A stretch of DNA of 64,000 nt from positions 19,732 to 83,731 of the forward strand of contig DJYI01000139.1 of NCBI GenBank assembly GCA_002448475.1. Direction: 5' to 3'. The position numbers and the translations under genes are program-made. This document shows, piece by piece, positions 10,590-47,889 of this stretch. This stretch comes from Verrucomicrobia bacterium UBA6982 (GTDB taxonomy: Bacteria > Verrucomicrobiota > Kiritimatiellia > RFP12 > UBA3636). The notes below the pieces were generated by a model, which searched no databases, was not told the DNA's origin, and saw nothing but the letters and a program-made list of their open reading frames with translations. Within the stretch, counting starts at the first letter, position 1, and each line of letters starts with the position of its first letter.

Positions 10590-11915
10590 TTACAGAAGAC
10601 CCGACGGCGGGAGGGGACCGACAAGCGGGCGCGCCCAGGAGATGAATGCGGGAGTGACGTCGTTGCCCGACTTGGCAATGAAGGCGTCAGGCATCGAGCG
10701 CGTGTTTTTGGCGACTTTTTCCACGGGAACAGCTACAAATTCCACTGCGTATGCTCGGCCCTGGCGGCGGCGGATCGAAATGGATGCCGCTTCCGCCGGA
10801 GCGCCGGCCGCGGCGCGGGCGAGGGCGTAGCGGACAGCTTCGGCTCCGACCGCGCGCGCCTCTGCGCTGTCGCTTTCGCTCGCCATGCCGGGAAAAGTGC
10901 GCTGAAGGTAGCCGAATGTGTCGGCGCGGACGCGTTTGATTCCGGTCTTTTCCTTCACAAGATGCGCAAGCCAGTCGCCGAGGGACCCGCTGCCAGAGAG
11001 CTGGAGGTTGCCGTGAGAGTCGCGCTCGTTGGAGAACTTCGACGCAACCAGAACCCCGCGGGAGTCTCGAATTCCCTCGCTGGCGGCCACGACGCAGCGG
11101 CCTAGTCTGGAATAGACGGCTTTTACGTCGGAGACGAACTTCTGCGGCGAAAACGCCCTCTCCGGCAGATACACGAGGTGAGGGCCGGAATCGCGCCCCG
11201 TGCGAGCCAGCGCGGAGGCGGCTGTGAGGAACCCGGCGTCGCGCCCCATGACGATGTCAATTTTTACCCCTCCGAGCGCTCGGTTGTCTAGATCGTCGCC
11301 GCGCAGGGCGCAGGCCACGAAGCGGGCTGCCGAGCCATAGCCTGGAGTGTGGTCGTTCTCGAGCAGGTCGCAGTCTATCGTCTTTGGCACGTGCACCACG
11401 CGCAGTGGTGCGCCAGCCTTTGCGGCATGCGCCGCAACGATGCGCGCGGCATCGGCGGAATCGTTGCCTCCGATGTATAGGAACAGCCCAACCTTGCGCC
11501 GCAGCAGCGCTTCAAGAATTCTGGCGCAGTCCTCCTCGGTTGGCTTGTGTCGGCATGAGCCGAGCGCCGCAGACGGAGTGGCGGCCACTGTTTCGAGCCG
11601 TTCGGGGGTGACGCGGCGAAGGTCGATCCAGTCGTCGGAAAGAACGCCGTCAATGCCATGGCGAGCGCCGAGAATGCGTCCGACCGAGGCGCCTGCGTCA
11701 CGTGCGGCGGCGACGGCGCCGACAAGCGACTGGTTGATGACCATTGTTGGGCCGCCGGACTGGGCGATTGCGAGATTCGGAAGATTTTTCACGGTTGATT
11801 CGAGTTGTCGGCGCGCCCCGGGGCGTTGAGCAAAACCGCCCAGTCGTGCCGGGAACGCATCGTAACAGACCGCCCCCAACCGTGCAACGAAAAGGAGAGC
11901 GAATGGTTTGGCCAA
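10590..11915 (-). CDS. 6-phosphofructokinase family protein (probably PPi-dependent)
   Basis: PFK hallmarks are present: SGGPT...N, VPKTIDCDL (like PKTIDND) and MGRDAGFL (MGRxxG). The start is uncertain: 11915 is a TTG, and a GTG at 11792 would give a shorter product starting VKNLPNLAI. Confidence 0.75.
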   Translation of the reverse strand: MAKPFALLFVARLGAVCYDAFPARLGGFAQRPGARRQLESTVKNLPNLAIAQSGGPTMVINQSLVGAVAAARDAGASVGRILGARHGIDGVLSDDWIDLRRVTPERLETVAATPSAALGSCRHKPTEEDCARILEALLRRKVGLFLYIGGNDSADAARIVAAHAAKAGAPLRVVHVPKTIDCDLLENDHTPGYGSAARFVACALRGDDLDNRALGGVKIDIVMGRDAGFLTAASALARTGRDSGPHLVYLPERAFSPQKFVSDVKAVYSRLGRCVVAASEGIRDSRGVLVASKFSNERDSHGNLQLSGSGSLGDWLAHLVKEKTGIKRVRADTFGYLQRTFPGMASESDSAEARAVGAEAVRYALARAAAGAPAEAASISIRRRQGRAYAVEFVAVPVEKVAKNTRSMPDAFIAKSGNDVTPAFISWARPLVGPLPPSGLL

Positions 11916-12064
11916 AACCTGTCCATAGTTTGCTGACTAAACACACATGATTCTGTGCATTTAGTTCGGTGGACTACGTTGAAATAGTCCATTTGTGTTT
12001 TTTTCACAAACTACTTGCATTCCGTCCTGTCTTATGGTAGTGTCCCCGCATCTAGGATACGCCC

Positions 12065-13363
12065 ATGCTGATTGAAGCCACATTCGAAAACCTCCTTTCC
12101 TTTGACAAGCCCACCACCTTCTCCATGGTGGCCGGCAAGATCACGAAGCAACACAAGGACCATGTCAGAAAAGTCGCCGGAACATCTGTGTTGCGAGGGG
12201 CCATTCTGTATGGCGCCAACGCCGCCGGAAAGACGAATGTGATCAAAGCCTTGGCTCTGTTTAACCAAATGCTCTTGACAGGGGATTGCGGAGCGTTTTT
12301 AGGAAACAGGTTTCTCTTGTCGGCAAAGCCTCGTTCTGACATGATGTGCGAACTTGTCGTCAGCAATGCAGAACATGTTTTCCGTTATCATGCCACAACG
12401 GACGGAAAGGCTATTCGCAAGGAATCGCTTTGGTTGATTTCCCCCACAGGCGATGAACTGCTCTTCGACCGATCCAACATCGGTGTCCGGCGCGGTCCAA
12501 TGCTAGACGATCCATGGTACCAATGGCGGACCGTTCAGGACAAAACTCCCTATCTTTCAAAACTCGTTTCCGACGGACTTTTTGAACATCGCAGGCAAAT
12601 TCCGAATTCTGACATCCTGATTGAAGCCGTCATGGCATTGCGGTTCGTAGTCCCGCTGTCCTTCGTTGCCAGCGTCTCAATTGTTCCGATGTTCATCGTA
12701 GGCGGTGCCGGAAGATTCAAGGACTTCCTGAAAGATTTACTCGTCAAAGCCGATGCCGGTATCACAGGCGTGACAGGCATTCCCCTATCCAAGAAGACAT
12801 TGGAAAGCCTGCCGCTTGCGACCGCCATGTCGCGACCTGACATGGATATTCTTATGGGCAGCACGTCCGAGCTTTCCTACGGCTTTTCCTTCAACGGTAA
12901 ATACATAGTCCTGTCACGCTCAAAATCGGGATTCAAGGGCGAAGAGATTCAACTCCAGCATGGGTTGACGACATTTCCTCCAGAGGCGGAATCCGAGGGG
13001 ACGCGTCGACTTGTCGAATACGCACCGCTTTTTCTGTTCCTTCGGGAAACGCCTGCGGCATATCTCGTCGACGAATTCGACAGCCATCTGCACCCCGCTC
13101 TTTCGAAGTTTCTGCTTGAAACGGTGTTTGCAACAGCCCATCCGGAAGCCCAGTTCATCGTTACCGCTCACGACACGACGCTGATGACGCACGACCTTTG
13201 GCGGACGGATGAAATCTGGTTCTCCGAAAAAAGGCAGGACGGTTCGACAGATCTTTACTCGATGTACAACTTCACGCCGCGATTCGACAAGAACCTCGAA
13301 AAGGGCTACCGACAGGGACTCTACGGCGCGGTTCCCTTTCCGGGTGGAGAATGGCGCAGATGA
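12065..13363 (+). CDS. AAA_21/AAA_15-type ABC-like ATPase (AbiLi / OLD-family ATPase-like)
   Basis: Walker A is GANAAGKTN and Walker B/D-loop is AAYLVDEFDSHLHP, followed by the ...VTAHDTTLM... region typical of SMC/OLD-like ATPases. It sits in a low-GC islet and its 3' end overlaps the next gene. Confidence 0.75.
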   Translation: MLIEATFENLLSFDKPTTFSMVAGKITKQHKDHVRKVAGTSVLRGAILYGANAAGKTNVIKALALFNQMLLTGDCGAFLGNRFLLSAKPRSDMMCELVVSNAEHVFRYHATTDGKAIRKESLWLISPTGDELLFDRSNIGVRRGPMLDDPWYQWRTVQDKTPYLSKLVSDGLFEHRRQIPNSDILIEAVMALRFVVPLSFVASVSIVPMFIVGGAGRFKDFLKDLLVKADAGITGVTGIPLSKKTLESLPLATAMSRPDMDILMGSTSELSYGFSFNGKYIVLSRSKSGFKGEEIQLQHGLTTFPPEAESEGTRRLVEYAPLFLFLRETPAAYLVDEFDSHLHPALSKFLLETVFATAHPEAQFIVTAHDTTLMTHDLWRTDEIWFSEKRQDGSTDLYSMYNFTPRFDKNLEKGYRQGLYGAVPFPGGEWRR

Positions 13364-13986
13364 AATCGAGTGCCTCACCGGCGGATCGGCCTCGCATCAC
13401 CGCCACGGTCTACCTCTTCCACGAAGGGGCGACGGAACTCCGCTATTTCCAGGACCTCGCCCGAAATCGCTCCGTGCGCATCGTCCGCCGGGAGAGGAAC
13501 GCCGCTCCGCTCAAGCTTCTTGAAAGCGCGGTCCGGTTCGTCAACCAGAACTGCCGGGCGATTGCGAGAACGACGCCCGATCCGCATGTCTGGGTTGTCT
13601 TCGACGACGATGAGAAACCCGACATCCGCGACGCCGCCGATTGGTTCGTTCGAAACCGCACCTCGATTCCTGACGCCTTCCGCGAGCGCTTCCACGTCGG
13701 CTACATGAAACCCTGCATCGAATTGTGGGGCATGCTCTGCCATCCGAACGGTCGGACTGCCTTCCGCCGTGCCCGCACCCACGTCGAGATGCAACGCGAA
13801 CTGCGCCGCGTCATGCCATCCTACGACCACGACGCCAATCCCTACTTCGACGTAAAGACGATGACTACACTTCCGTTCGCCTGCAAAACAGCCGAAAGCT
13901 GGGAACATACATCCGGTCCTTTTCCCCAATGCATCAACACCTCCTTCTTCGCTGGCATTTACCAGCTTGTTAGAATCATATCGTGA
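13360..13986 (+). CDS. RloB-like (Toprim-like) protein, partner of the upstream ATPase (AbiLii-like)
   Basis: The N-terminus ITATVYLFHEGATELRYF matches the RloB signature (ILIVcEGekTEpnYF-like). The ATG at 13360 forms an ATGA overlap with the upstream stop at 13361-13363. An in-frame ATG at 13351 is an alternative start. Confidence 0.65.
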   Translation: MKSSASPADRPRITATVYLFHEGATELRYFQDLARNRSVRIVRRERNAAPLKLLESAVRFVNQNCRAIARTTPDPHVWVVFDDDEKPDIRDAADWFVRNRTSIPDAFRERFHVGYMKPCIELWGMLCHPNGRTAFRRARTHVEMQRELRRVMPSYDHDANPYFDVKTMTTLPFACKTAESWEHTSGPFPQCINTSFFAGIYQLVRIIS

Positions 13987-13993
13987 ACGTAGC

Positions 13994-14037
13994 TTGCAAA
14001 AGTAAACGCACCTGATTTGGTGCGTTTACTTTTGCAA
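13994..14037. terminator. Perfect 19-bp inverted repeat (TTGCAAAAGTAAACGCACC / GGTGCGTTTACTTTTGCAA) with a 6-nt loop; a candidate terminator or protein-binding palindrome
   Basis: Read directly from the sequence. It lies 8 nt after the RloB-like stop. There is no U-tract on either side. Confidence 0.4.
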
Positions 14038-14203
14038 ACGATGTCAGGAAAAACGGGATAAGCCTGATCAAAAATTATCTTGAACGCCAATTCCGGTGAT
14101 GGTAGAATCCCCGCCGTTGAAGCGATGCTGGAACCTTGTTCCGGCGAATTTTCGTCAGTCTATTTGCGTTTGCGGTCGCACTTTCGAACACACGAGGGCA
14201 TAC

Positions 14204-15172
14204 ATGTCAAGGTTTCTTGATCCAAAGGCGGACGTCACGTTCAAGAAGGTGTTTGGCGAGCACGGGAATCTCGTCATCAGCCTTCTAAACGCCATGCTTC
14301 CCCTCGACGAAGGCAAGCAGGTCGAATCCATCGAGTATCTTCCTCCGGAGCAGGTTCCCCGGACTCCAACTGGCAGGAATTCCATCGTTGACGTCCGTTG
14401 CGAGGAGACAGGCGGGCGCAAGTTCATAGTCGAAATGCAAATGGAGTGGACGCCGGAATTCCAGCAGCGCGTCCTCTTCAACGCCTCCAAGGCATACGTC
14501 CGGCAGATGCGCAAGGGCTCGAAATACCACCTGCTTCAGCCGGTCTATTCGCTCAACTTCATAAACGACATATTCGCCCCCGACCTGCCCGGCTACTATC
14601 ATTACTACCACCTCGTCCACTATCTTCATTCCGACAAGGTGCTTGACGGACTTCATCTCGTGTTCGTTGAACTGCCGAAGTTCAAGGCAAAAAGCCTCGC
14701 TGAGAAGAAGATGCAGGTTCTGTGGCTGCGTTTTCTGACGGAAATCGACGAAAACACCAGAAAAGTCGCCAAGGAACTTCGAGACAATCCGCAAGTCAGC
14801 GAGGCCCTGGACATCGTCGAGGAGTCCGCTTTCAACGACGAGGATCTGGCCGCCTACAACGGGTTCTGGGACCGCGTGAGCCGGGAGGCCACGAAAAAGG
14901 CGAACATGGACCGTGCGTTTGCCGAGCGAGACGCCGCCGTGGCAAATCTCAACGCTGCCGTGGCAAAGCTAGACGCCGCCGTGGCCGACCGCGACGCCGC
15001 CGTGGCAAAGGCGGATGCCGCCGCCGCGAAAGCCGATGCCGCAATAACTAAATTGCTACAGACAGCGCGAAAGCTTAAATCGCGTGGTTTTTCCGACAAA
15101 GACATCGCCGCCATCACGGGCCTTGACGCCGCCACAATCTCAAATCTGTCCAACCTCCATATCCCACAATGA
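14204..15172 (+). CDS. Rpn/YhgA-like PD-(D/E)XK nuclease, putative transposase-like recombination-promoting nuclease
   Basis: The N-terminus MSRFLDPKADVTFKKVFGEH and ...VDVRCEETGGRKFIVEMQ... (the nuclease core) are typical of the Rpn/transposase_31 family. The start is the ATG at 14204. The upstream 36 codons of the ORF are probably not translated. Confidence 0.65.
   Translation: MSRFLDPKADVTFKKVFGEHGNLVISLLNAMLPLDEGKQVESIEYLPPEQVPRTPTGRNSIVDVRCEETGGRKFIVEMQMEWTPEFQQRVLFNASKAYVRQMRKGSKYHLLQPVYSLNFINDIFAPDLPGYYHYYHLVHYLHSDKVLDGLHLVFVELPKFKAKSLAEKKMQVLWLRFLTEIDENTRKVAKELRDNPQVSEALDIVEESAFNDEDLAAYNGFWDRVSREATKKANMDRAFAERDAAVANLNAAVAKLDAAVADRDAAVAKADAAAAKADAAITKLLQTARKLKSRGFSDKDIAAITGLDAATISNLSNLHIPQ
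14927..15052 (+). repeat. Six tandem 21-nt (heptad) repeats encoding DAAVAxx, at the C-terminus of the Rpn-like gene
   Basis: The nucleotide unit is gacgccgccgtggcaaa.... The protein reads ERDAAVA NLNAAVA KLDAAVA DRDAAVA KADAAAA KADAAIT. Confidence 0.6.
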
Positions 15173-17669: not shown

Positions 17670-19277
17670 GTGACCGCAGACTTTCGCCATCTTCTCTCCG
17701 ATTTCCTCCCGCGCATTCTCTCGCAGTGCTGCCGGGATGCGAACAGCCCCGCCTTCGGATGCTTCGACCGAAACTTCTGGCACTACCGAATGCGGGATTT
17801 CGCCTCGATCATCCTCCAACAGGGCGGCTACACGGTCCTGCAGGCCCAACGGGCGCTTCCGGGCGGCCCGCTCACGGAGTCGTTCGCCCGTTCGATCGCC
17901 GCCGGAGCCTGCCGATTCTGGAACCGCCGCGCCGCTCGCCACGGCGCCTTTGAGGAATACTATCCCTGGGAACAGGGCTATCCTCCACTCGCCTTCTCTT
18001 CCCTCGCCGTCGCCAAGATGGTCGCCGCCGGCGTCTGCGCCGCCGGGGACGTCGACCGCGGTCTCCGAAAGGCCGCGCGCCAACTTGCCGCCCGTTTCGA
18101 GCCAAAGGCCGCGAATCAGCAGGTCGCCGGCCTCGCCGCGCTCGCGTGGATTCGAAAAATCCGCCCCGACCTCGTTTCCGACCGCGCCTTCGCCCGCCAG
18201 AAAAAGCGCACGCTCACCCTGCAGACGGACGAAGGATGGTTCTGGGAATACGACGGTCCCGACGCCGGCTACCTTTCCGTCACGATCGACTGCCTCTGGG
18301 ACCTTTTCGACGCCACCGGCGACGCGGATTTCCGCACCTCTGCCGACCGCGCTCTCGCATTCCTCCATCGGGTAATCGCCGTGCCCGGTCGTGCCCCCGG
18401 TATGCTCAACGCCCGCAACACCGACTATGTCGTTCCCTACGGCATTGCCCGCTACCTTAATAACGGAACCGACATCCAGCGTCGCCTCGCCGGGCAGCTC
18501 CTCGCCGCGCTCTACGCCGATCTCCCGTCGCCAGCCCATTTCTTCCGCGCCGTCGACGACCGCTATCTCTGCCACTACATCGGCCACTCCATCGCCAGAG
18601 CCATCCTGGAGCTGGAAAAAGCCGAACGCTCCGCCCCTGATTCGGCCGCGCCCGAAGCGCCAGCCCGCGAAGCCTTCGACCTCCCCCTCGCCGGCTACGT
18701 CTTCCGACCGGGCTTTGACGGCGCCCCCGACCTCTTCCTCGCGCTCAAGAAGGGCGGCTGCCTCCGCGCCTCCCTCGGCGACGCCTCCGCGCTCGACTTC
18801 GGCTGGATTGTCAAGACCGGCAGGAAACAGTTCGTCACGCACTGGTGGAGCCGCGACTGGACCCTCTCCTCCGACGGCGCCTCGTGGACCATTCGCGGCC
18901 CGCTCGCCCCGCACAAGGAGCTCGACTCGACGCCCTTCAAGCACTTCGGCCTCCGCATCGTCTCGTTCCTCTTCGGCAAATCCGTCATCGGACTCCTCAA
19001 AAACGTCCTCATCTTCAAGAAGACGAAGAGCCCCTACGCCTTTGAACGCACCGTTTTCCTCGACGGAGGTGCCGTCCGGATCGAGGACCGCATCGACGGC
19101 CTGACCGGTTCCGAAACCGTCCTTCCCGCGCCCCGCGCCTCCAAGCGCCATGTCGCCTCCGCCGACAGTTTCCACGCCGAGGACGTCGCCCTCTCCCACA
19201 GTTTCGCCGCAAAGAGGGAAACCCGCATGGAGAACGGATCTTTCACCGTATCCACCGCTCTTTCTCGCAATCTTTGA
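17670..19277 (+). CDS. Hypothetical soluble protein (535 aa) in the polysaccharide locus
   Basis: A long ORF with coding-like composition, co-directional with the FrhB-like gene. I recognise no motif. It has a GTG start. Confidence 0.45.
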   Translation: MTADFRHLLSDFLPRILSQCCRDANSPAFGCFDRNFWHYRMRDFASIILQQGGYTVLQAQRALPGGPLTESFARSIAAGACRFWNRRAARHGAFEEYYPWEQGYPPLAFSSLAVAKMVAAGVCAAGDVDRGLRKAARQLAARFEPKAANQQVAGLAALAWIRKIRPDLVSDRAFARQKKRTLTLQTDEGWFWEYDGPDAGYLSVTIDCLWDLFDATGDADFRTSADRALAFLHRVIAVPGRAPGMLNARNTDYVVPYGIARYLNNGTDIQRRLAGQLLAALYADLPSPAHFFRAVDDRYLCHYIGHSIARAILELEKAERSAPDSAAPEAPAREAFDLPLAGYVFRPGFDGAPDLFLALKKGGCLRASLGDASALDFGWIVKTGRKQFVTHWWSRDWTLSSDGASWTIRGPLAPHKELDSTPFKHFGLRIVSFLFGKSVIGLLKNVLIFKKTKSPYAFERTVFLDGGAVRIEDRIDGLTGSETVLPAPRASKRHVASADSFHAEDVALSHSFAAKRETRMENGSFTVSTALSRNL

Positions 19278-19312
19278 TTTTATGTCCGCTCCCGTCTTCT
19301 TCCGCACACGAG

Positions 19313-20449
19313 ATGACTACCATGAGTTTGGCAAGTGACATTTCAATCAATAATGGACAGCCAATGGGAGGCCCTTCCCAGCTGGATGCCACGAGTCGGG
19401 ATGTCAACACACACATTTTTGGAATTGATATACTACGAATCGTAGCCATGCTAATGGTCATTTCCCTGCACATTCTTGAACATGGTAGAGCCTTTGACAG
19501 TCTAGGATCAAGCAATTGGGTCAACAAGCTTGCGCGATGTTTTCGCGCCGAACACTTGTGTGCCGTAGACTTGTTTATGGCGACTACCGGATGGCTCCTA
19601 GTAAAGAAACCGTTTCGTCTCAAAAGATTGTCCGAACTAGCAATTCAAGTTTTCTCCATTTCACTAATCATCCGGATTGTTGCTCTTGTTTTTTTTGAAC
19701 AAAGGGTTTCGTGGTTGTCATTTTTCGCGGATTCCTGGTATTGGAATTGTTACATAACCATTATCCTGCTCTCCCCTATTATCAATATCGGATTGCAAGG
19801 ACTCCATTCCGCATGGAAGAAACAATCCGGATGGATTCTTCTCGCATGTCTTGCCGCATCAATCTATCTCTTACCATTCAAAGTGGAAAAATCATCCCCA
19901 GGATACAGTGTTGTTTGGATGCTGGTATGCTATCTGTTTGGCGCTTGGAGTCGACTGTCTATTGGGATTATTCGGAATTCTGCTACTCGTTGGACCATTG
20001 AAGCCATCGCCTTGTTGCTCCCCATTCTTGCCGTAGGAATTTCATATGGGCTCCTACTGATTGGAGTGAAGGCGTTTTCCCTCGCCGAGCACTATCATTC
20101 CCCACTGATTTTAGGATGTGCCCTTTGTCATTTGCTTTTTTTCACAAGCATTCCAATCACTCGGCTTCCGAAGTTACTCCGTTTGGCAGCAGACGTCTCA
20201 TTTGGTGTCTACCTGATACATGAGAACCCTATTGCTCGAGTCTGGTACCTGAACGATCGGTTCAGTTGCCTTGAAACAAGCTCGTTCTTGGATTTCGTTG
20301 TTTGTATCTGGACTGCTGCGATAATCATCTATCTGTGCTGTGCTGTTTTGGAATTAATTCGGTTTCTCCTTTTCAAACTGTTAGGGCGGACATTATCTGC
20401 GCTCAAGCAATCCTTCCAACCAACAAATCGCTGCTTGCAAACCAACTGA
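19313..20449 (+). CDS. Acyltransferase family 3 membrane O-acyltransferase (paralog 1 of 5)
   Basis: GIDILRIVAMLMVISLHI (the AT3 N-terminal signature) and a multi-TM, Phe/Leu-rich body. It sits in a low-GC segment. The start is the ATG at 19313. Confidence 0.7.
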   Translation: MTTMSLASDISINNGQPMGGPSQLDATSRDVNTHIFGIDILRIVAMLMVISLHILEHGRAFDSLGSSNWVNKLARCFRAEHLCAVDLFMATTGWLLVKKPFRLKRLSELAIQVFSISLIIRIVALVFFEQRVSWLSFFADSWYWNCYITIILLSPIINIGLQGLHSAWKKQSGWILLACLAASIYLLPFKVEKSSPGYSVVWMLVCYLFGAWSRLSIGIIRNSATRWTIEAIALLLPILAVGISYGLLLIGVKAFSLAEHYHSPLILGCALCHLLFFTSIPITRLPKLLRLAADVSFGVYLIHENPIARVWYLNDRFSCLETSSFLDFVVCIWTAAIIIYLCCAVLELIRFLLFKLLGRTLSALKQSFQPTNRCLQTN

Positions 20450-20934: not shown

Positions 20935-21869
20935 AGCTCTTCATCCAGATCCCCTGCCTCAACGAAGAGGCCACGCTTCCGCAGACGCTCGCCGACCTGC
21001 CGAAGCAGATCGACGGCATCGACGAGATCGAGGTGATGGTCGTCGATGACGGCTCGACCGACCGCACTGTCGAGGTCGCACGCGAATGCGGCATAAAGCA
21101 TATCGTATCCCATGGCAGCAACCGCGGCCTCGCCGCCGCGTTCTCCTCCGGCCGAGACTACGCTCTCGCCCACGGGGCAGACATCCTCGTCAACACCGAC
21201 GCCGACAACCAGTACTGCGGCGCCGACATCGCCAAACTCGTCGTCCCGGTCCTTGAAAACAAGGCCGACATCGTCGTCGGATGCCGCCCCATCGTCGACA
21301 ATCCGGAATTCTCCCGCGTCAAGAAGCTCCTTCAGCTCTGCGGCAGCTGGGCGCTTCGCCGCATCTCCAAGACGACCGTCCGCGATGCCCCCTCCGGCTT
21401 CCGCGCCTTCTCCCGGAACGCCCTCTCCCGCATCTTCCTGCACTCCCGGTTCTCCTACTGCATGGAGACGCTCATCCAGGCGGGTACGACCGGCATGCGC
21501 GTTTCCTCGGTCGACATCCGCGTGAATCCCAAGACGCGCGACTCGCGCCTCTTCAAGTCCATTCCCCAGTATCTGCGCAAGACCGGCGGCACGATGCTCT
21601 CGATGTTCGTCCTCTACCGGCCCGGCGCGTTCTTTTCGCTGCTCTCCGCACCGTTCTTCCTCCTCGCCGCAATCCTGGGCTTCCGCTTCCTCCTCCTCGT
21701 CTACGCATTTCCCGCCCCCGCCCGCACCCATCTGCCATCACTCATTCTCCTCGCCATCTCCGCCTTCGCCGGTCTGCTCTGCCTCCTTCTCGCCGTCCTC
21801 GGCTCCCTCCTCGGCGCCAACCGCCGCCTCGCCGAGGAACAGATATACCTTCTCCGGAAAAAGCCATGA
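20931..21869 (+). CDS. Family 2 glycosyltransferase, GtrB-like polyprenyl-phosphate glycosyltransferase
   Basis: The GT-A N-domain reads ...EVMVVDDGSTDRT...VNTDADNQY... (DxD), and there is a C-terminal 2-TM tail, as in GtrB/DPM synthases. Confidence 0.75.
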   Translation: MKLFIQIPCLNEEATLPQTLADLPKQIDGIDEIEVMVVDDGSTDRTVEVARECGIKHIVSHGSNRGLAAAFSSGRDYALAHGADILVNTDADNQYCGADIAKLVVPVLENKADIVVGCRPIVDNPEFSRVKKLLQLCGSWALRRISKTTVRDAPSGFRAFSRNALSRIFLHSRFSYCMETLIQAGTTGMRVSSVDIRVNPKTRDSRLFKSIPQYLRKTGGTMLSMFVLYRPGAFFSLLSAPFFLLAAILGFRFLLLVYAFPAPARTHLPSLILLAISAFAGLLCLLLAVLGSLLGANRRLAEEQIYLLRKKP

Positions 21870-23437
21870 GACTCCGTTTCAACACCGCAGGCCCCTGCAT
21901 CCCCGGACGGCACTACATGCTTCCGGCGCTGGATCGACTTCCCGAGGTCCGCCGCCTCGTCGAGGACGAGGACTACTTCGTCGTCCACGCCCCGCGCCAG
22001 ACCGGCAAGACCACGGCGCTCAACGCCCTCGTCGATGAAATCAACGCCGCGGGCGACAAGGTTGCGCTCTACTGCTCCCTGGAAACGCTCCAGAATGCGG
22101 CCGACCCCGCCCACAGCGCCGAGGCCATCTGCGGGCTGCTTCTCTTCAACGCCCGCCAGACGCTTCCCGACCTGTTTCCCCAGCCCCCGAAGGATGACCG
22201 TGTCCGGGAATCGGGCGGTCTGTATGCGGCGGAGACCATTGCCGTCCGCGAGACGCTTTCCTCCATGGCCCGACAAGCCGCGAAGCCGCTCGTCGTGTTC
22301 TTCGACGAGGCGGACTGCCTCGCCGGGCAGGTGCTCGTCTCCTTCCTTCGCCAGCTTCGCGACGGATATGTCAACCGGACCCGCATTCCCTTTCCCGCAT
22401 CCATCGCGCTTGTCGGCATGCTCGACGTGCGGGACTACAAGGCCCAGATTCGCCCCGACGGCGAGTCGCTCGGACAGATCAGCCCGTTCAACATCATCGC
22501 GGAAGACATCCTGCTTCGCTCCTTCACCGACGCGGAAGTCCGGGCCCTCTACGCGCAGCACACCGAGGCGACGGGCCAGACCTTTGCGCCCGACGCCGTC
22601 GACAAGGCGATGGACCTGACGCGCGGCCAGCCCTGGCTCGTCAACGCCCTCGCCCGGGAATGCGTGGAAAAGATCCACCGGCTCGACTACTCCGCCCCGA
22701 TCACGGCCGAGGATGTCGAAACGGCGAAGGAGTCCATCATCCGCCGCCGCGACACGCACGTGGACAGCCTCATGGAGCGCCTTCGCGAACCACGGGTGCG
22801 GCGCATCGTCGAACCGGTCATCCTTGGGGAAGACCGCGTCGCGTCCGTGAACGACGAAGACTACCGCTTCGTCCTCGACCTGGGGCTGCTGCGCGAAGAT
22901 CGGGGTGCGCTCGTGCCTGCGAACCGGATGTACGCGGAAATCATCGGACGCTATCTCACCCGCGACGTGCAGACGGACATGTTGCAGTCCGTTCCGCAGA
23001 CACCCTGGGCCACGCCGGACGGACTGGACATGCCCGGCCTCATGGCGGCATTCCAGGCGTTCTGGCGCGAAAACAGCGGTGCCGACAAGAGGGTCTGCGA
23101 TTACCGGGAGGCGACCCCTCATCTGATGCTCATGGCGTTCCTGCAGCGCGTTTTGAACGGCGGAGGGCGCATCGTGCGCGAGATGGCCCTCGGTTCGCGC
23201 CGGCTCGACCTCTGCGTCGAATACCGAGGCCGCCGCTACGCCGTCGAGGTCAAGACCTCGAAGAACTTCGCGGGGGAGAAATCGTATGCCCAGCTCGCCG
23301 GCTACCTCGACACCCTCGGCCTCCCGGAGGGCTGGATGGCCGTGTTCGACACCGGTTCCGACAAGCCGTGGAACGAAAAGCTGTACCGCCGCGATGTCCC
23401 CTTCGCGGGAAAGACAATTCATATCGTGGGGCTATAA
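21866..23437 (+). CDS. AAA-like-domain ATPase (PF14516-like N-terminus) with a C-terminal PD-(D/E)XK-like region
   Basis: FNTAGPCIPGRHYMLP...DYFVVHAPRQTGKTTAL fits the AAA_35-like N-terminus and Walker A. The C-terminus ...RRLDLCVEYRGRRYAVEVKTSKN... looks like a restriction-endonuclease-like fold. The ATG at 21866 overlaps the GT2 stop as ATGA. The ORF's upstream 195 codons overlap the GT2 gene and are not expected to be translated. Confidence 0.6.
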   Translation: MRLRFNTAGPCIPGRHYMLPALDRLPEVRRLVEDEDYFVVHAPRQTGKTTALNALVDEINAAGDKVALYCSLETLQNAADPAHSAEAICGLLLFNARQTLPDLFPQPPKDDRVRESGGLYAAETIAVRETLSSMARQAAKPLVVFFDEADCLAGQVLVSFLRQLRDGYVNRTRIPFPASIALVGMLDVRDYKAQIRPDGESLGQISPFNIIAEDILLRSFTDAEVRALYAQHTEATGQTFAPDAVDKAMDLTRGQPWLVNALARECVEKIHRLDYSAPITAEDVETAKESIIRRRDTHVDSLMERLREPRVRRIVEPVILGEDRVASVNDEDYRFVLDLGLLREDRGALVPANRMYAEIIGRYLTRDVQTDMLQSVPQTPWATPDGLDMPGLMAAFQAFWRENSGADKRVCDYREATPHLMLMAFLQRVLNGGGRIVREMALGSRRLDLCVEYRGRRYAVEVKTSKNFAGEKSYAQLAGYLDTLGLPEGWMAVFDTGSDKPWNEKLYRRDVPFAGKTIHIVGL

Positions 23438-32986: not shown

Positions 32987-34027
32987 CTACCTTCCTCCGA
33001 ACAGGACGGCGGATGTTTTCGGCATGGTTCTTTTCAACAGTTCCGCAATGGCGAGGGAAACGGCGAACGCGAAGACGGCGACACCCAGATACGCCACCGT
33101 GCTTCTTCCGGGATGCAAATACGCCTTGACGGGGAGAAGAACGAATTTGTGGACAAGGTAAACGCCGAACGAACTGGAAACAAGCCACTCGGGCCATCGA
33201 CTGTCGCCCATCAGGCCCCAAACGCCGTACAGGGTGAACGGAACGCACAGGAAGCCGAGATGCTCCGCCGCCGGAAGCCCCTTCAAGACGAAGAATGCCC
33301 TGAATACAGCCAGACCGATTCCGACAGTCAGCGAAACGACAGGGGGGGGGGGCTGAAATCCACGATTCCTTTCTGTAGCGCAAGGCCGAGCGAAAAAAAA
33401 GAACAGGCCCAGCACAGGAAAGATTCCGACTCGGGCGAATTCTTCCCATTGCCCCGCGTTCGGCAACGGCCAAAACGGACAGACCGCAGCATAAACGACG
33501 AACAAAAGCAGCAGAAACCATCCTCGGAATTTCTTCAGGCACCAGACGAATGCCGGAGACAAGACCACCAGGATGAACAGCGCCCGTACATACCACAGCG
33601 GAGTCAGATAGGGGCATCGAGTGGGCCACAGACCGATTTGCCTCAACGTCGGAAACGTGAACGACACGGTTCTTCCGTGGAGGAGCGAATGGGCGTTCTT
33701 CCAGAGGAAATTCTCCAGCCAGAACAGCGCATTCCAGAGGACAAAGGGAACGAGAAGCGTTCGGACACGTTTGCCTACGGCTTTCCGGTATCCCTTCCCT
33801 TGCAGACTACGCCCCACCATGTAGCCGGACACGGTGAAGAAGAACGGGACTGCGATCTGCGTCACGCCGTTTTCAAGGATTTCCTCCAGCCACCAGCCGG
33901 TCGTTCCGCGCCCGAAATGCGGACGGCAATGGATGATCACCACGAGGAATGCGCATAAAATCCCCATGTTCCTGATTTTGCGGCTCGCCGCCTCGGTCAA
34001 TGTTCCGCGTTCATTCATTCCTAACAT
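32987..34027 (-). CDS. Acyltransferase family 3 membrane O-acyltransferase (paralog 3); carries the poly-C(11) and T8 homopolymers
   Basis: ...[19 protein letters not shown]... is the AT3 N-terminal signature, followed by a multi-TM body. Its 5' end overlaps the aminotransferase 3' end by 8-17 nt. Confidence 0.7.
33342..33352. repeat. Homopolymeric G(11) on the plus strand, which is C(11) on the coding strand and encodes QPPPP inside the acyltransferase-3 gene
   Basis: Counted directly: a-ggggggggggg-c at 33341-33353. A second T8 run on the coding strand (A8 on plus, 33393-33400) lies 40 nt away in the same gene. Confidence 0.9.
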
Positions 34028-45788: not shown

Positions 45789-46826
45789 ATGGAAATCAAA
45801 CACTCGTTCCGGCTCGCCTGGCTTGATGACATCAAGGGATTCGCCATGCTATGCGTGGTGATCCAACACGCCTTTTTGAATCCGCCATGGGGTCGTTACT
45901 TGTTTCTTGGATCAGTCCCTATATTTTTCGTCGCTGCCGGGTTCACGACTACGTCTATGACCTCCGAACAGATTTCAAGAAAAGCAAAACGACTGCTCGT
46001 TCCGTACTTCGTATATGCGGTCGGCCTTGGACTGATCGCCCTCGGTGCTACCTGCTGGAAAAACGGCTCGGGTGCGGACTTCGGCCACCGCATCCTTCTT
46101 CTGCTTTCCGGCATTGCTTATGGAAGACATTCTGTATTCAGAGACGGCAGCGGAATCGGGCTGAATCACTTTGGGATCGCGCCATTATGGTTTCTCCCGG
46201 CTCTTTTTCTTTCGTTTGTCCTGTTGTTCCTCTTCGACAAGTTGCCGAAGTGTCTGCAATTCCCGTATACGATAGGGCTTCTTGCCGGAACGATCCTCGC
46301 AACCCGATTACAAATCTATTTGCCATGGAGCATTGATCTAGCGCCGATCGGAATGTTTCTCCTTGCAACCGGTCGGTTTTTGCGAAAGACGACTGCTCCA
46401 ATTCAAACAGGATTTCCTTTTGTCGATTGTTTTGTATGGCCAGCTTGGGCGTTTCTCGCTCGCACAAATGGTTTTCCGGTTTCGTTTTTCAATGGACAGT
46501 TTGGCTCGCATGGAATGGCAAGCCTCGCCGCTTACGTATTGTTAGCCGTCACTGAATTTGTCCTTCTCGCCAGACTCCTGAACAACACCCACGGAGGGAA
46601 GCTTTTCTTTGTTCCGTTTAGGGCACTCGGGAAGAATTCTCTCGTCTTTCTATGTTTTCAGCTGTTCATCATCAACGCTTGCGAACTGGCATTGGGGAAC
46701 TCGCCGGGGAGTAACATTTCTGTCGGTTTGATCAAAAGTTTGGTCACTATTGTATTCTGCTTGCTCGCTGCGCGTTTGATATTTAGACTTGGAAAAACCG
46801 TCCCTTTCTTCAAATTGCTGGGATAA
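45789..46826 (+). CDS. Acyltransferase family 3 membrane O-acyltransferase (paralog 4)
   Basis: ...LAWLDDIKGFAMLCVVIQHAF... (the AT3 signature) and a multi-TM body. Confidence 0.65.
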   Translation: MEIKHSFRLAWLDDIKGFAMLCVVIQHAFLNPPWGRYLFLGSVPIFFVAAGFTTTSMTSEQISRKAKRLLVPYFVYAVGLGLIALGATCWKNGSGADFGHRILLLLSGIAYGRHSVFRDGSGIGLNHFGIAPLWFLPALFLSFVLLFLFDKLPKCLQFPYTIGLLAGTILATRLQIYLPWSIDLAPIGMFLLATGRFLRKTTAPIQTGFPFVDCFVWPAWAFLARTNGFPVSFFNGQFGSHGMASLAAYVLLAVTEFVLLARLLNNTHGGKLFFVPFRALGKNSLVFLCFQLFIINACELALGNSPGSNISVGLIKSLVTIVFCLLAARLIFRLGKTVPFFKLLG

Positions 46827-46830
46827 TAGC

Positions 46831-47889
46831 ATGAAATCGACCAAAACAACATCATATCGGATCGCCGCTTTCGATGTCTTGCGAAGCATTGCTCTCTTCG
46901 GCATTGTCGCCGTTCATGTCTGCTATTCCTTTCCAGACAATTCGTTCCGCCGCGCCGGGCAGCAACTGGGAGGAACCTTCAACGCTGTATTTCTTCTGTT
47001 GTCTGCTCTTTTGACGGGGTTGGCGAACAAACACATCAAGGAGTCCCCCGCTCGTTTTCTCGCCCGTCGAGCCTTGCGAGTGGGAATTCCGCTTTGGATT
47101 TTTCTTGTGTTTTTTTTCGTTGCCGCCATTGCTTGGACAGACACTACGATCCCGGCTGCAAAGGCCGTGGCCGAGTTCGCATTCCTTGGTTGGCCCGTGA
47201 AACTCCCTGGCCTAGGGCATCTTTGGTTTGTAACGCTCATTCTTCTTTGCTATGCACTAGTCGTTATCCTCGACCACAACCCGGCCCTCTTTGATGGGGC
47301 TCGGAAGGAAGGCTTCATCTTCCTTGCGACCATTACAACATCGTTGCTATTCGACCAGTGGAATATCCCAGCAGTACAAGCCCCGCTTTATCTGTTTTTT
47401 TTCGGTTTCATCTGGAAACACGCGACTGCCATCTTCTCGCTTGCAAAACGATCCATGACCAGAACCGCGTCTGCGATAATCGCGACGGCGGCATTCGTTA
47501 CTTTGCAAATTGGCAGCGCCATAGCATTCCAGCGCGGCTTATGGGACAAATCGCAGATGGGAGCGTATGTTCTGGGGTTGGTCGCGGGAATGTCCTGGAT
47601 CATTTTCGTAATTGGCCTATTGGAACGGGCTTCCATTCCACACATCGTTACGAAACTGTTCTCGACAATCGCGATTATTAGCTATGAGGCATATCTTGTC
47701 CACAACCCGTTCACGCGAATTCCGTTTCCGATCCACAAATCGTTGGGTCTCGACTCGTTCCTGGCCCGCTATTTATTCGTCCTAATCGTCTCTCTGTTAC
47801 TGGCCGGAGCCTTGCATGAAATCGCCACCTACACTCGCACCATCCTTTCAAGGTGGCAAAATCATGCCGGACCTTCACGATTCCCATGA
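46831..47889 (+). CDS. Acyltransferase family 3 membrane O-acyltransferase (paralog 5)
   Basis: ...YRIAAFDVLRSIALFGIVAVHVCY... (the AT3 signature) and a multi-TM body. The start is the ATG at 46831, 5 nt after the upstream stop. Confidence 0.65.
   Translation: MKSTKTTSYRIAAFDVLRSIALFGIVAVHVCYSFPDNSFRRAGQQLGGTFNAVFLLLSALLTGLANKHIKESPARFLARRALRVGIPLWIFLVFFFVAAIAWTDTTIPAAKAVAEFAFLGWPVKLPGLGHLWFVTLILLCYALVVILDHNPALFDGARKEGFIFLATITTSLLFDQWNIPAVQAPLYLFFFGFIWKHATAIFSLAKRSMTRTASAIIATAAFVTLQIGSAIAFQRGLWDKSQMGAYVLGLVAGMSWIIFVIGLLERASIPHIVTKLFSTIAIISYEAYLVHNPFTRIPFPIHKSLGLDSFLARYLFVLIVSLLLAGALHEIATYTRTILSRWQNHAGPSRFP

Follow-up and report, generated by a model that had tools for sequence, protein, structure and literature searches.

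Introduction

Two components are needed for AbiL, encoded on Lactococcus lactis plasmid pND861, to block phages of lactococci; the block comes 'after transcription' and its mechanism is unsolved (PMC13064643). The two genes of AbiL are co-directional and adjacent: the first encodes AbiLi, an ABC ATPase of AAA_21/Rad50-like type with about 430 amino acids, and the second AbiLii, a Toprim-like member of the RloB family with about 200; they are carried on mobile or accessory DNA. Of the Abi systems that still lack a mechanism or a solved structure, AbiL is among the oldest. The literature places it together with PARIS as ABC ATPase + Toprim, within the same tree of AAA15/21 defence ATPases (PMC11464382). 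PARIS (AriA/AriB) is likewise a two-gene operon for a split ABC ATPase and Toprim nuclease, often found on mobile elements, and once released from AriA its AriB acts as a two-metal Toprim tRNase (PMC11464382, PMC12409363). RloB owes its name to type I R-M loci of Campylobacter (PMC10440598, PMC13064643); HHpred ties RloB to OLD_TOPRIM, and in the NetFlax network AAA proteins are predicted to be antitoxins of paired TOPRIM_OLD toxins (PMC10440598).

How does a similar pair of genes in an uncultured gut or rumen lineage of the Kiritimatiellia compare with these systems? The pair lies in the 64-kb stretch of DNA analysed here (the window), and its profile matches predict a new member of the known AbiL family. 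As another predicted AbiL system it would be caught by standard defence-finder pipelines; what it adds are base-pair boundaries and population evidence, consisting of an empty site together with a trough in diversity, for AbiL moving as a 2-kb promoter-to-terminator unit.

The two genes and their products

Gene 1 (12065..13363, plus strand) encodes an AbiLi-like ABC ATPase of the Rad50/SMC-head type, 432 amino acids long, and gene 2 (13360..13986, plus strand) a predicted AbiLii/RloB-family Toprim-like nuclease of 208 amino acids. A sequence-only reading of this DNA had already placed both open reading frames at these positions, and every peptide it quoted was found. The gene 1 stop and the gene 2 start overlap as ATGA at 13360..13363 (plus strand; cgcagATGAaat), as was also claimed, and this arrangement, read from the sequence, predicts translational coupling. 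The identical 4-nt overlap occurs in the homologous pairs L097 and L100. An alternative in-frame ATG at 13351 would lengthen the gene 2 product to 211 amino acids; a GGAG Shine-Dalgarno sequence is found 10 nt upstream of 13360 and merely 1 nt upstream of 13351, and independent gene calls on public contigs also start the gene at 13360. The genes are adjacent on the same strand, with a single leader and a single hairpin, as in an operon.

The gene 1 product matches Pfam AAA_21 at 77.1 bits (cut-off 27) and the PADLOC AbiLi profile (PDLC02335) with an E-value of 6.9e-67 and 223.8 bits, the profile being covered only in part; there are also weak RecF and SMC_N matches. The Walker A motif GANAAGKTN (residues 50-58, 12212..12238) and the stretch LVDEFDSHLHP, both singled out in the sequence-only reading, are present and conserved in homologues. 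Among 83 homologues, G50, N52, G55 and K56 of Walker A are invariant, as are S310 and G312 of an ABC signature-like motif, ESEGTRRL (residues 309-316, 12989..13012), in which conservation at E309 and T313 is 90% or more. LVDEFDSHLHP (residues 334-344, 13064..13096) is the Walker B and D-loop region, with invariant D336, E337 and H343, and it aligns to LIDEVDMFLHP of PtuA. An H-loop, TAHD, follows (residues 367-370, 13163..13174; H369 at least 90% conserved), with an invariant Q363 nearby; all these motifs are read on the plus strand. With Walker A, signature, Walker B and H-loop intact, the ATPase is predicted to be catalytically competent.

The gene 2 product matches Pfam RloB at 60.1 bits (cut-off 31.5) over positions 2-192 of 195, i.e. 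full-length, and PADLOC AbiLii (PDLC02337) with an E-value of 1.3e-11, again with the profile covered only in part. The RloB signature noted earlier, TVYLFHEGATELRYF, is present, and the profile searches thus bear out the proposed RloB similarity; the Pfam profile matches 45 of 45 family members. EGATE, the Toprim glutamate motif (residues 22-26, 13423..13437, plus strand), is invariant at E22, G23, T25 and E26 in 45 homologues. It directly follows strand beta-1 (residues 15-21) of the structure model (pLDDT 93), and its partners in hhalign are VEGITE in a GajA-like OLD Toprim and VEGPTE in a DUF4276 protein. A DxD-type acidic motif, DDDE (residues 82-85, 13603..13614, plus strand), is at least 90% conserved from D82 to E85 in the same homologues and sits at the end of strand beta-3 (residues 75-82 in the model). 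The protein is thus predicted to be of the RloB/AbiLii type with conserved Toprim-type acidic residues, EGxTE and DDDE. Further conserved residues are K117-W123, H141 and H157; together with E22 and D82-E85, and given confident models, these provide mutational targets. This branch of RloB is small and divergent, with 15 clusters (50% identity) at E<=1e-30 among 1.84 billion representatives, and a PDB sequence search with the protein and its profile gave only noise and no relative.

Comparison with known systems

The AbiL-like assignment is supported by AAA_21, RloB and both PADLOC AbiL profiles, and it is through the PADLOC profiles that the window pair was compared with L. lactis AbiL, its closest characterized counterpart. 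Unlike the pair on pND861, this one is chromosomal, in a high-GC uncultured host of the PVC group. The earlier likening to PARIS and OLD, as systems of the 'ABC ATPase + Toprim' type, fits the grouping in the literature (PMC11464382, PMC13064643), but the PARIS part of it holds at the level of architecture only, the partner being RloB and not DUF4435. The PARIS detection rule demands a DUF4435 (PF14491) Toprim partner (PMC9122126). No match to DUF4435 appeared at E<=10 in the window protein or in 44 relatives, so membership in PARIS was rejected; no AriB profile is among the PADLOC matches, and the AriA profile matches gene 1 (4.8e-20) over residues 302-374 only. The AriA hexamer is built by a coiled-coil bundle, whereas the inserted domain of the gene 1 ATPase (about residues 230-305) is beta-rich in the structure model, and AriA is a more distant structural match to this ATPase than PtuA or Rad50. 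The beta-rich insertion and the distance from AriA mean that a PARIS-like sequestration architecture is not implied.

Other relatives differ in gene structure or in the effector. In OLD proteins of class 1 (P2 Old, Ts OLD) and class 2 (Gabija GajA), one fused polypeptide of 500-700 amino acids contains both ATPase and Toprim; the window encodes two proteins in separate reading frames, with a stop codon at 13361-13363, which places the pair outside both classes. Gabija also requires the UvrD-like GajB, and no helicase gene adjoins the window pair. Septu PtuA/PtuB and the retron-associated PtuAB have an HNH effector, PtuB, where the window has RloB/Toprim. PtuA profiles match gene 1 in the C-terminal Walker B region only (E about 1e-9), and no PADLOC PtuB or HNH profile matches gene 2, so the pair is not assigned to Septu; for comparison, a genuine PtuAB pair in L100 scores 3.8e-91 and 6.3e-52. 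The NetFlax toxin-antitoxin nodes D29 (AAA) and D44 (RloB) have the same domain pairing as the window pair.

Boundaries and strain variation

The pair is accessory: it is a 2,066-bp presence/absence unit within the species and is younger than its flanks. This cassette spans 11988..14053 (plus strand), comprising leader, two genes and hairpin, and is delimited by an empty site and by divergence between strains. In contig L092, from the same species (98.6% identical, with the same PFK protein), the base corresponding to window 11987 is joined directly to 14054, the right end of the junction reading CGGGATAAGCCTGAT (window 14054-14068); the empty site rests on this one short contig of 3.3 kb, with a 43-nt tail beyond the junction. 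Exact-protein look-ups with the PFK, Mur ligase, methyltransferase and Rpn proteins found only L092 without the pair, and the other contigs that reach past pfk have it. A junction search of JGI metagenomes with GAAATAGCGGGATAAGCCTG gave four matches, none of which (0/4) aligns to the window beyond the 20-mer, and for this reason they were treated as chance. DNA homology of the window cassette to that of L100 begins at 11992. No flanking direct repeats were seen at 11988 or 14053, and the sole tRNA gene is at 1798-1874; on these two grounds tRNA-linked integration was rejected.

Between strains, the cassette differs at 2.4-4.4 positions per kb, the left flank and pfk at 15-19 and the right flank at 11-24, and synonymous differences in core genes vs the cassette give Fisher p values from 5e-5 to 4e-7. 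The low divergence of the cassette relative to its flanks points to a more recent, horizontal history. Is the pair conserved at this position in the lineage? It is absent from L092, and among 80 pfk loci of related genomes none (0/80) has it beside pfk, although the GTDB pfk relatives, the best of them 77% identical, share no synteny even for Mur ligase and ETF and could not reveal an empty site.

The fall in GC after pfk that had been described from the letters is real: GC drops from 0.646 (11250-11749) to 0.526 (11750-12249) and stays at 0.50-0.51 up to 13000. Third-position GC, however, is deviant in the ATPase gene only (0.60, vs 0.71-0.73 in pfk, Mur ligase and ETF), the RloB gene (0.73) and the Rpn-like gene (0.71) not being deviant. 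The proposal of a horizontally acquired islet stands as regards an accessory unit less diverged than its flanks, but the unit is not isolated. Flanked by pfk, Mur ligase and ETF and, at its opposite end, by genes for Rpn, a small-molecule-type methyltransferase, FrhB, an acyltransferase, GtrA and GT2, it forms the left edge of a polysaccharide locus of about 40 kb with mosaic GC.

The cassette closes with a terminator-like hairpin at 13987..14044, an inverted repeat (I1) with a perfect 19-bp stem, symmetric on both strands and ending 9 nt before the right boundary. Its RNA fold is -38.3 kcal/mol (z -8.4 vs shuffles). An Rfam scan of the region found no family at threshold and no structured RNA; two sub-threshold mir-548 matches are the hairpin itself.

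The leader and its palindrome

Of particular interest is a palindrome in the leader, TTTGTGT-TTTTT-TCACAAA (11992..12010, plus strand), a candidate operator with the 15-bp family consensus TGTGA-N5-TCACA. It occurs once in the 64-kb window, vs 0.02 expected; the 29 loci that bear the ATPase have one copy each, and 92 other loci have none. The palindrome is kept across phyla, in cassettes whose ATPases are 31-64% identical and whose hosts range in GC from 0.30 to 0.65, and its arms covary (variants TGTCA/TGACA, TGAGA/TCTCA and AGTGA/TCACT). The CRP consensus has a spacer of 6 nt; here the spacer is 5 nt, and a CRP-type site was considered unlikely on that account.

Downstream are putative promoter elements (12015..12043, plus strand), read from the sequence: TTGCAT (12015-12020), a 17-nt spacer and TAGTGT (12038-12043), with TG at 12035-12036 ahead of the latter. 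An alignment of four cassette leaders shows conservation of the -35-like hexamer and of a TGnTAnnnT element, and a generic sigma-70 scan made no call at these elements. A Shine-Dalgarno-like AGGA (12054..12057, plus strand), its AGG conserved in aligned leaders, lies 7 nt upstream of the gene 1 ATG.

The palindrome, placed ahead of the promoter, probably governs operon expression. Could the cassette's own proteins bind it? This is possible as a route of control. A bolder proposal is that the palindrome is an operator recognized by the AbiLi-AbiLii complex, which would make AbiL a cassette that runs from promoter to terminator and regulates itself, and the first defence system of the AAA + Toprim kind with toxin-antitoxin-style transcriptional autoregulation; minimal cassettes such as AbiL, Septu and PDC-M29 would be slotted between surface-polysaccharide operon genes in gut Kiritimatiellia without a dedicated recombinase. 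We regard this combined proposal as speculative and, on balance, doubtful. If true, recombinase-free cassettes in polysaccharide operons would couple the turnover of phage receptors to that of intracellular immunity. A leader palindrome shared across phyla is in any case a concrete handle on the control of AbiL operons.

Homologous pairs in other genomes

The ATPase-RloB pairing is kept in every homologous locus examined, and the pair stays together across phyla in unrelated genomic contexts. Homologous pairs are found in polysaccharide loci, on plasmids, in a Gabija/type I R-M island, in the interval from ychF to rho, and in a Klebsiella P2-like prophage hotspot, the variable stretch that separates the replication genes from the portal gene. 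They adjoin Septu, PDC-M29 and HEC-01 cassettes and a TIR gene, and in one case a GajA-like + UvrD pair and HsdR.

Proposed function and alternatives

What might the pair do? It is likely a self-contained, horizontally exchanged anti-phage cassette of the AbiL family, running from leader and promoter to terminator hairpin. PARIS, where a sensor ATPase restrains a Toprim effector, would be its best mechanistic analogue. Following PARIS and the NetFlax AAA/Toprim pairs, an ATPase oligomer would keep the nuclease inactive in uninfected cells, serving as both sensor and antitoxin. A phage-derived cue, with ATP binding or hydrolysis, would free or activate the nuclease, which might then cut nucleic acid through two-metal catalysis. 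By the same analogy the most likely target would be an RNA of the translation machinery, for instance tRNA, and the outcome abortive infection, with phage production halted at the expense of host growth.

The nuclease of such a defence system might instead be no RNase and, gated by the ATPase, make nicks in phage or host DNA or degrade it, like GajA and the class 1/2 OLD proteins. This is conceivable but the less probable choice of target: lactococcal AbiL is reported to act after phage transcription, a better fit to a target at the level of translation (PMC13064643, Table 1), and PARIS, the best-understood split ATPase + Toprim system, is a tRNase (PMC11464382, PMC12409363). Might the pair be a selfish toxin-antitoxin (addiction) module, with RloB as toxin and the ATPase as antitoxin, that persists and spreads since its loss is harmful and gives this host no meaningful phage protection? 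NetFlax does put AAA + RloB/TOPRIM pairs in a type II toxin-antitoxin network (PMC10440598), a compact autonomous cassette with an operator-like palindrome resembles autoregulated toxin-antitoxin operons, and the cassette spreads between strains. Yet toxin-antitoxin activity and abortive-infection defence are not exclusive, PARIS being both, and L. lactis AbiL confers phage resistance (PMC13064643); homologues of the window pair, moreover, cluster with bona fide defence systems and occupy a prophage variable region. A purely selfish role thus seems improbable.

An RloA/RloB-type accessory of a type I R-M locus, or a core-genome housekeeping repair pair of the RecF/Rad50 kind, is suggested by the origin of the RloB name (PMC10440598, PMC13064643) and by the weak RecF and SMC_N matches of the ATPase. 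But no hsdR, hsdM, hsdS or N6_Mtase domains occur among the called neighbours within about 10 kb, and without hsd genes the pair was not assigned to RloA/RloB R-M loci; the 215-aa methyltransferase matches Methyltransf_23/25 only, below cut-offs. The pair is also missing in one strain and in all related pfk loci, and core genes have a different and older history, so that either role is very improbable indeed.

The adjoining Rpn-family gene

Is the Rpn-like nuclease, earlier included in the islet, part of the AbiL-family cassette? A gene for a PD-(D/E)XK_2/Rpn-family protein (14204-15172; Pfam 8.8e-43, TIGR01784 5e-27) does adjoin the pair, but it lies outside the cassette unit. It was rejected as a part of the system because it is past the hairpin and the boundary, is replaced in strains L088 and L090, which diverge from the window at 14058 and carry other sequence in its place, and has no counterpart beside homologous pairs elsewhere, where no PDDEXK_2 gene was seen. 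The region of the gene has flank-like divergence between strains, and the gene has a promoter-like site of its own at 14080-14108.

An AbiL-family gene pair

Two co-directional open reading frames lie where a sequence-only reading had placed an AbiL-like module: an ABC ATPase gene at 12065-13363 (forward strand, 432 aa) and an RloB-family, Toprim-like gene at 13351/13360-13986 (forward strand, 211/208 aa). The peptides cited in that reading were all recovered from the window sequence, and the ATGA overlap that it described is found at 13360-13363, where the stop codon of the first gene covers the ATG of the second. The second gene is taken to start at 13360, as a GGAG sits 10 nt upstream of this position but 1 nt upstream of the alternative ATG at 13351, and the gene is also called from 13360 in identical public contigs.

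The proposed families hold as well. The ATPase scores 77 bits against Pfam AAA_21 (threshold 27) and 6.9e-67 against the PADLOC AbiLi profile; its partner covers the entire Pfam RloB profile with 60 bits (threshold 31.5) and matches PADLOC AbiLii at 1.3e-11. NCBIfam has no model specific to either gene. In an alignment of 83 ATPase homologues, G50 and K56 of Walker A, S310 and G312 of a signature-like motif, D336 and E337 of Walker B, H343 and the H-loop H369 are invariant or nearly so. Among 45 RloB homologues, E22-G-x-T25-E26 is invariant, and D82-D-D-E85, the KPCIELW block (117-123), H141, H157 and D164 are nearly invariant. In profile matches, gene arrangement and ATPase motifs the pair agrees with AbiL, and it is an ordinary AbiL-family cassette, correctly identified by the earlier reading. 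It adds one more member to an already known family; the added value lies in base-pair boundaries, population evidence for recent mobility and a candidate operator.

Might the pair belong to another ATPase-containing system? PARIS is rejected because its defining DUF4435 partner is absent here (detection rule, PMC9122126). OLD and Gabija are rejected since their ATPase and Toprim parts are fused and Gabija requires a helicase. Septu fails on its HNH partner, and an R-M-linked RloAB arrangement on the absence of hsd genes among the called neighbours within about 10 kb.

Relatives and their genomic locations

A word-indexed search gave 129 ATPase homologues, the nearest 63-64% identical. The RloB branch is small, with 768 matches at E<=1e-3, 69 at <=1e-10 and 15 at <=1e-30 among 1.84 billion representatives. 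Homologous pairs elsewhere have genes that overlap or are a few nt apart, and they occupy very different places: polysaccharide loci of related bacteria (public loci L097, L100-L103 and L129), sites adjoining a TIR gene (L104), a GajA-like plus UvrD pair and HsdR (L105) or a methylase/Mrr gene (L131), the interval between ychF and rho in an alphaproteobacterial MAG (L108), plasmids of Clostridium, Geminocystis and Emticicia, and a Klebsiella P2-like prophage, between replication genes and the portal gene. On a Fusobacterium plasmid the ATPase is followed by an unannotated 219-aa open reading frame. This distribution is that expected for a mobile defence module.

The prophage pair (L121, Klebsiella phage ST13-OXA48phi12.1, 28871-30857; 26% identity) is flanked by the replication endonuclease/DinI genes on one side and the portal gene on the other, which is where P2 keeps old and tin. 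Related Kiritimatiellia contigs carry short two-gene defence cassettes interleaved, on the same strand, within polysaccharide-biosynthesis clusters (L100-L103, ~6.7-15.7 kb; L097, 0.8-8.4 kb; L129; compare 12-52 kb of the window). These are AbiL-like, Septu PtuAB (3.8e-91/6.3e-52), PDC-M29AB (3e-111/5e-27) and HEC-01B/DUF4276 cassettes. In L097 a 1.77-kb PDC-M29 insertion lies exactly between a DegT and an ATP-grasp gene that adjoin each other in L100. Identity is 89-94% for the flanking glycan genes but just 70% for AbiL pairs at the same position.

Boundaries and age of the cassette

Comparison with relatives, as had been suggested, yielded a strain without the pair, represented by a single short contig, L092 (3,274 nt, 98.6% identical to the window and encoding the same PFK protein). 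Position 11987 is joined there to 14054-14068, with divergent sequence beyond (...GGACTACGTTGAAATAG/CGGGATAAGCCTGAT... in window orientation, the slash marking the join), so that 2,066 bp, 11988-14053 (forward strand), are missing. These comprise a 77-nt leader, the two genes and a hairpin with a perfect 19-bp stem (-38.3 kcal/mol, z -8.4). A search for the junction in JGI metagenomes gave chance matches only. Two other contigs, L088 and L090, contain the pair, yet their sequence departs from that of the window at 14058; the Rpn-like gene to the right is thus not a constant neighbour.

Is the cassette a recent arrival? Among four strains with core genes 1-2% apart, pfk shows 15-19 differences per kb and the sequence right of the cassette 11-24, versus 2.4-4.4 inside 11988-14053. 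Synonymous codon differences number 38-43 in 1,114 core codons versus 1-4 in 642 cassette codons (Fisher p 5e-5 to 4e-7). Both open reading frames are intact in all strains compared. From the lower density of differences and the fewer synonymous changes, the history of the cassette is younger than that of its flanks. A single deletion of an ancestral gene pair does not fit this younger history; recent acquisition and spread by recombination do fit. The drop in GC noted earlier is present, from 0.65 to 0.50-0.53 immediately past the pfk 5' end. GC3 deviates in the ATPase only (0.60 vs 0.71-0.73 in core genes); that of RloB and of the Rpn-like gene shows no deviation from core genes.

Several minor features surround the junctions. 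A terminator-like hairpin (11968-11993, GGTGGACTA...TAGTCCATT and then a T-run) spans the left junction and exists only in cassette-bearing strains, as part of its 3' arm comes from the inserted DNA. Contig L089 has a 20-nt insertion at 11945, between pfk and AbiLi but not within the cassette. The sequence directly right of the cassette (14054-14070), together with the ends of contigs L088, L090 and L092, marks a hypervariable junction: after 14057/14068, three alternative sequences are found in strains otherwise ~98.7% identical. In the ATPase gene, non-synonymous versus synonymous codon differences from the window are 4 vs 1, 1 vs 0 and 2 vs 0 (L088, L089 and L117, respectively), whereas in pfk nearly all are synonymous (18-21, vs 0-2 non-synonymous); these small numbers hint at relaxed or diversifying selection on AbiLi.

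A palindrome in the leader

When leaders of cassettes from different contexts are aligned, TGTGATTTTTTCACA is invariant. This 15-bp palindrome, TGTGA-N5(A/T-rich)-TCACA, lies just upstream of AbiLi-like operon promoters across phyla (L097:3026, L100:6635, L104:339, L105:6921, L108:6917, L120:2400 and L129:2926). The window copy, TGTGTTTTTTTCACA, is at 11994-12008 (extended arms 11992-12010); downstream of it come a -35-like TTGCAT and, after 17 nt, an extended -10 (TGnTAnnnT), then a Shine-Dalgarno sequence. It is the only copy in the 64-kb window, with 0.02 expected. Each of 29 ATPase-bearing loci has one copy, always 57-69 nt upstream of the ATG, and 0/92 other loci have one. The alphaproteobacterial MAG, the Clostridium plasmid and L129 have identical arms, but different spacers, ahead of the gene; in L131 the arms have one mismatch. 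More distant homologues are preceded by symmetric arm variants (TGTCA/TGACA, TGAGA/TCTCA, AGTGA/TCACT), and in some the palindrome shares positions with the -35 hexamer or the promoter spacer. Generalized palindromes of the same form number just 11 in ~1 Mb of unrelated loci, 0/11 with TGTGA arms. CRP sites have a spacer other than the 5 nt found here.

As the hosts range in GC from 0.30 to 0.65 and belong to several phyla, and their ATPases are 24-64% identical to that of the window, the palindrome travels with the cassette. The most economical reading is that of a candidate operator, which the cassette's own proteins would bind.

Predicted structures and possible mode of action

Structural comparison of the predicted ATPase gave 20.2 for Rad50, 19.6 for SMC, 18.5 for the retron Ec83 ATPase, 17.9 for PtuA, 15.1 for Ts OLD, 13.3 for AriA and 12.4 for GajA. 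For its inserted domain (~residues 230-305), the prediction is a beta-rich structure and not a long coiled coil. In the model of RloB (pLDDT 93), a four-stranded alpha/beta domain is joined to a C-terminal helical portion. The glutamate motif comes after beta-1 and DDDE after beta-3, the placing expected in a Toprim domain. Foldseek with this model gave no match under E 1e-3, a PDB sequence search, profile query included, found no related chain, and hhalign against a GajA-like Toprim and a DUF4276 protein aligned only the hhhEGxTE motif.

As judged from sequence, the cassette encodes an ABC ATPase that is intact and an RloB protein whose acidic residues are conserved. The genes are translationally coupled, their partnership is conserved, and their behaviour is accessory and mobile. 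How might they act? In lactococci, AbiL requires two components and, by an unknown mechanism, arrests phage development at a stage after transcription (PMC13064643). In PARIS, the AriB Toprim nuclease is held by an AriA ATPase scaffold until a phage trigger frees it, and it then uses two-metal catalysis to cut tRNA (PMC11464382, PMC12409363). According to NetFlax predictions, an AAA protein paired with a TOPRIM_OLD toxin serves as its antitoxin (PMC10440598). By analogy with these AbiL, PARIS and NetFlax reports, a sensor ATPase would restrain a nuclease in an abortive infection response, with RNA a somewhat likelier target than DNA. The system may depart from PARIS in its details, given its different ATPase insertion and the existence of closer structural relatives than AriA.

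Surroundings in the window

The pair had been placed in a low-GC islet. The low GC is real; the isolation is not, as the region from 12 to ~52 kb is a mosaic of 0.45-0.60 GC segments. This mosaic encodes polysaccharide functions: pyruvyl transferases, four Acyl_transf_3 and two LicD proteins, GT4 enzymes, Wzy_C, a UDP-GlcNAc 2-epimerase, CTP-transferase/oxidoreductase and GtrA/GT2. Proteins identical to those of the window occur in contigs from several gut metagenome samples. The closest pfk genes in GTDB genomes are from Kiritimatiellia MAGs (<=77% identity), and the nearest GTDB pfk loci share no synteny with the window.

The Rpn-like neighbour was recognized rightly: it is an Rpn-family PD-(D/E)XK_2 'recombination-promoting nuclease/putative transposase' gene (14204-15172, alternative GTG start 14096), with its own promoter-like site at 14080-14108. 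Its C-terminal part has five to six 21-nt tandem repeats (14911-15022, one more at 15106) whose translation gives alanine-rich heptads (AAVAKLDAAVADRDAAVAKADAA...). A repeated or strain-variable 5' region is suggested by several independent assemblies, which end at 14248 or start again at 14372.

One Acyl_transf_3 gene (19274-20449; GC 0.45, GC3 0.46) lies between 0.65-GC genes and by composition looks far more foreign than the AbiL pair; the further three are at 32987-34027, 45789-46826 and 46789-47889. A 523-aa protein within the polysaccharide locus (21866-23437, longer open reading frame from 21281) has weak matches to AAA_16/AAA_35/AAA_22 STAND-like NTPases and to PADLOC PDC-S01 (3.8e-5), and may represent another defence-type gene.
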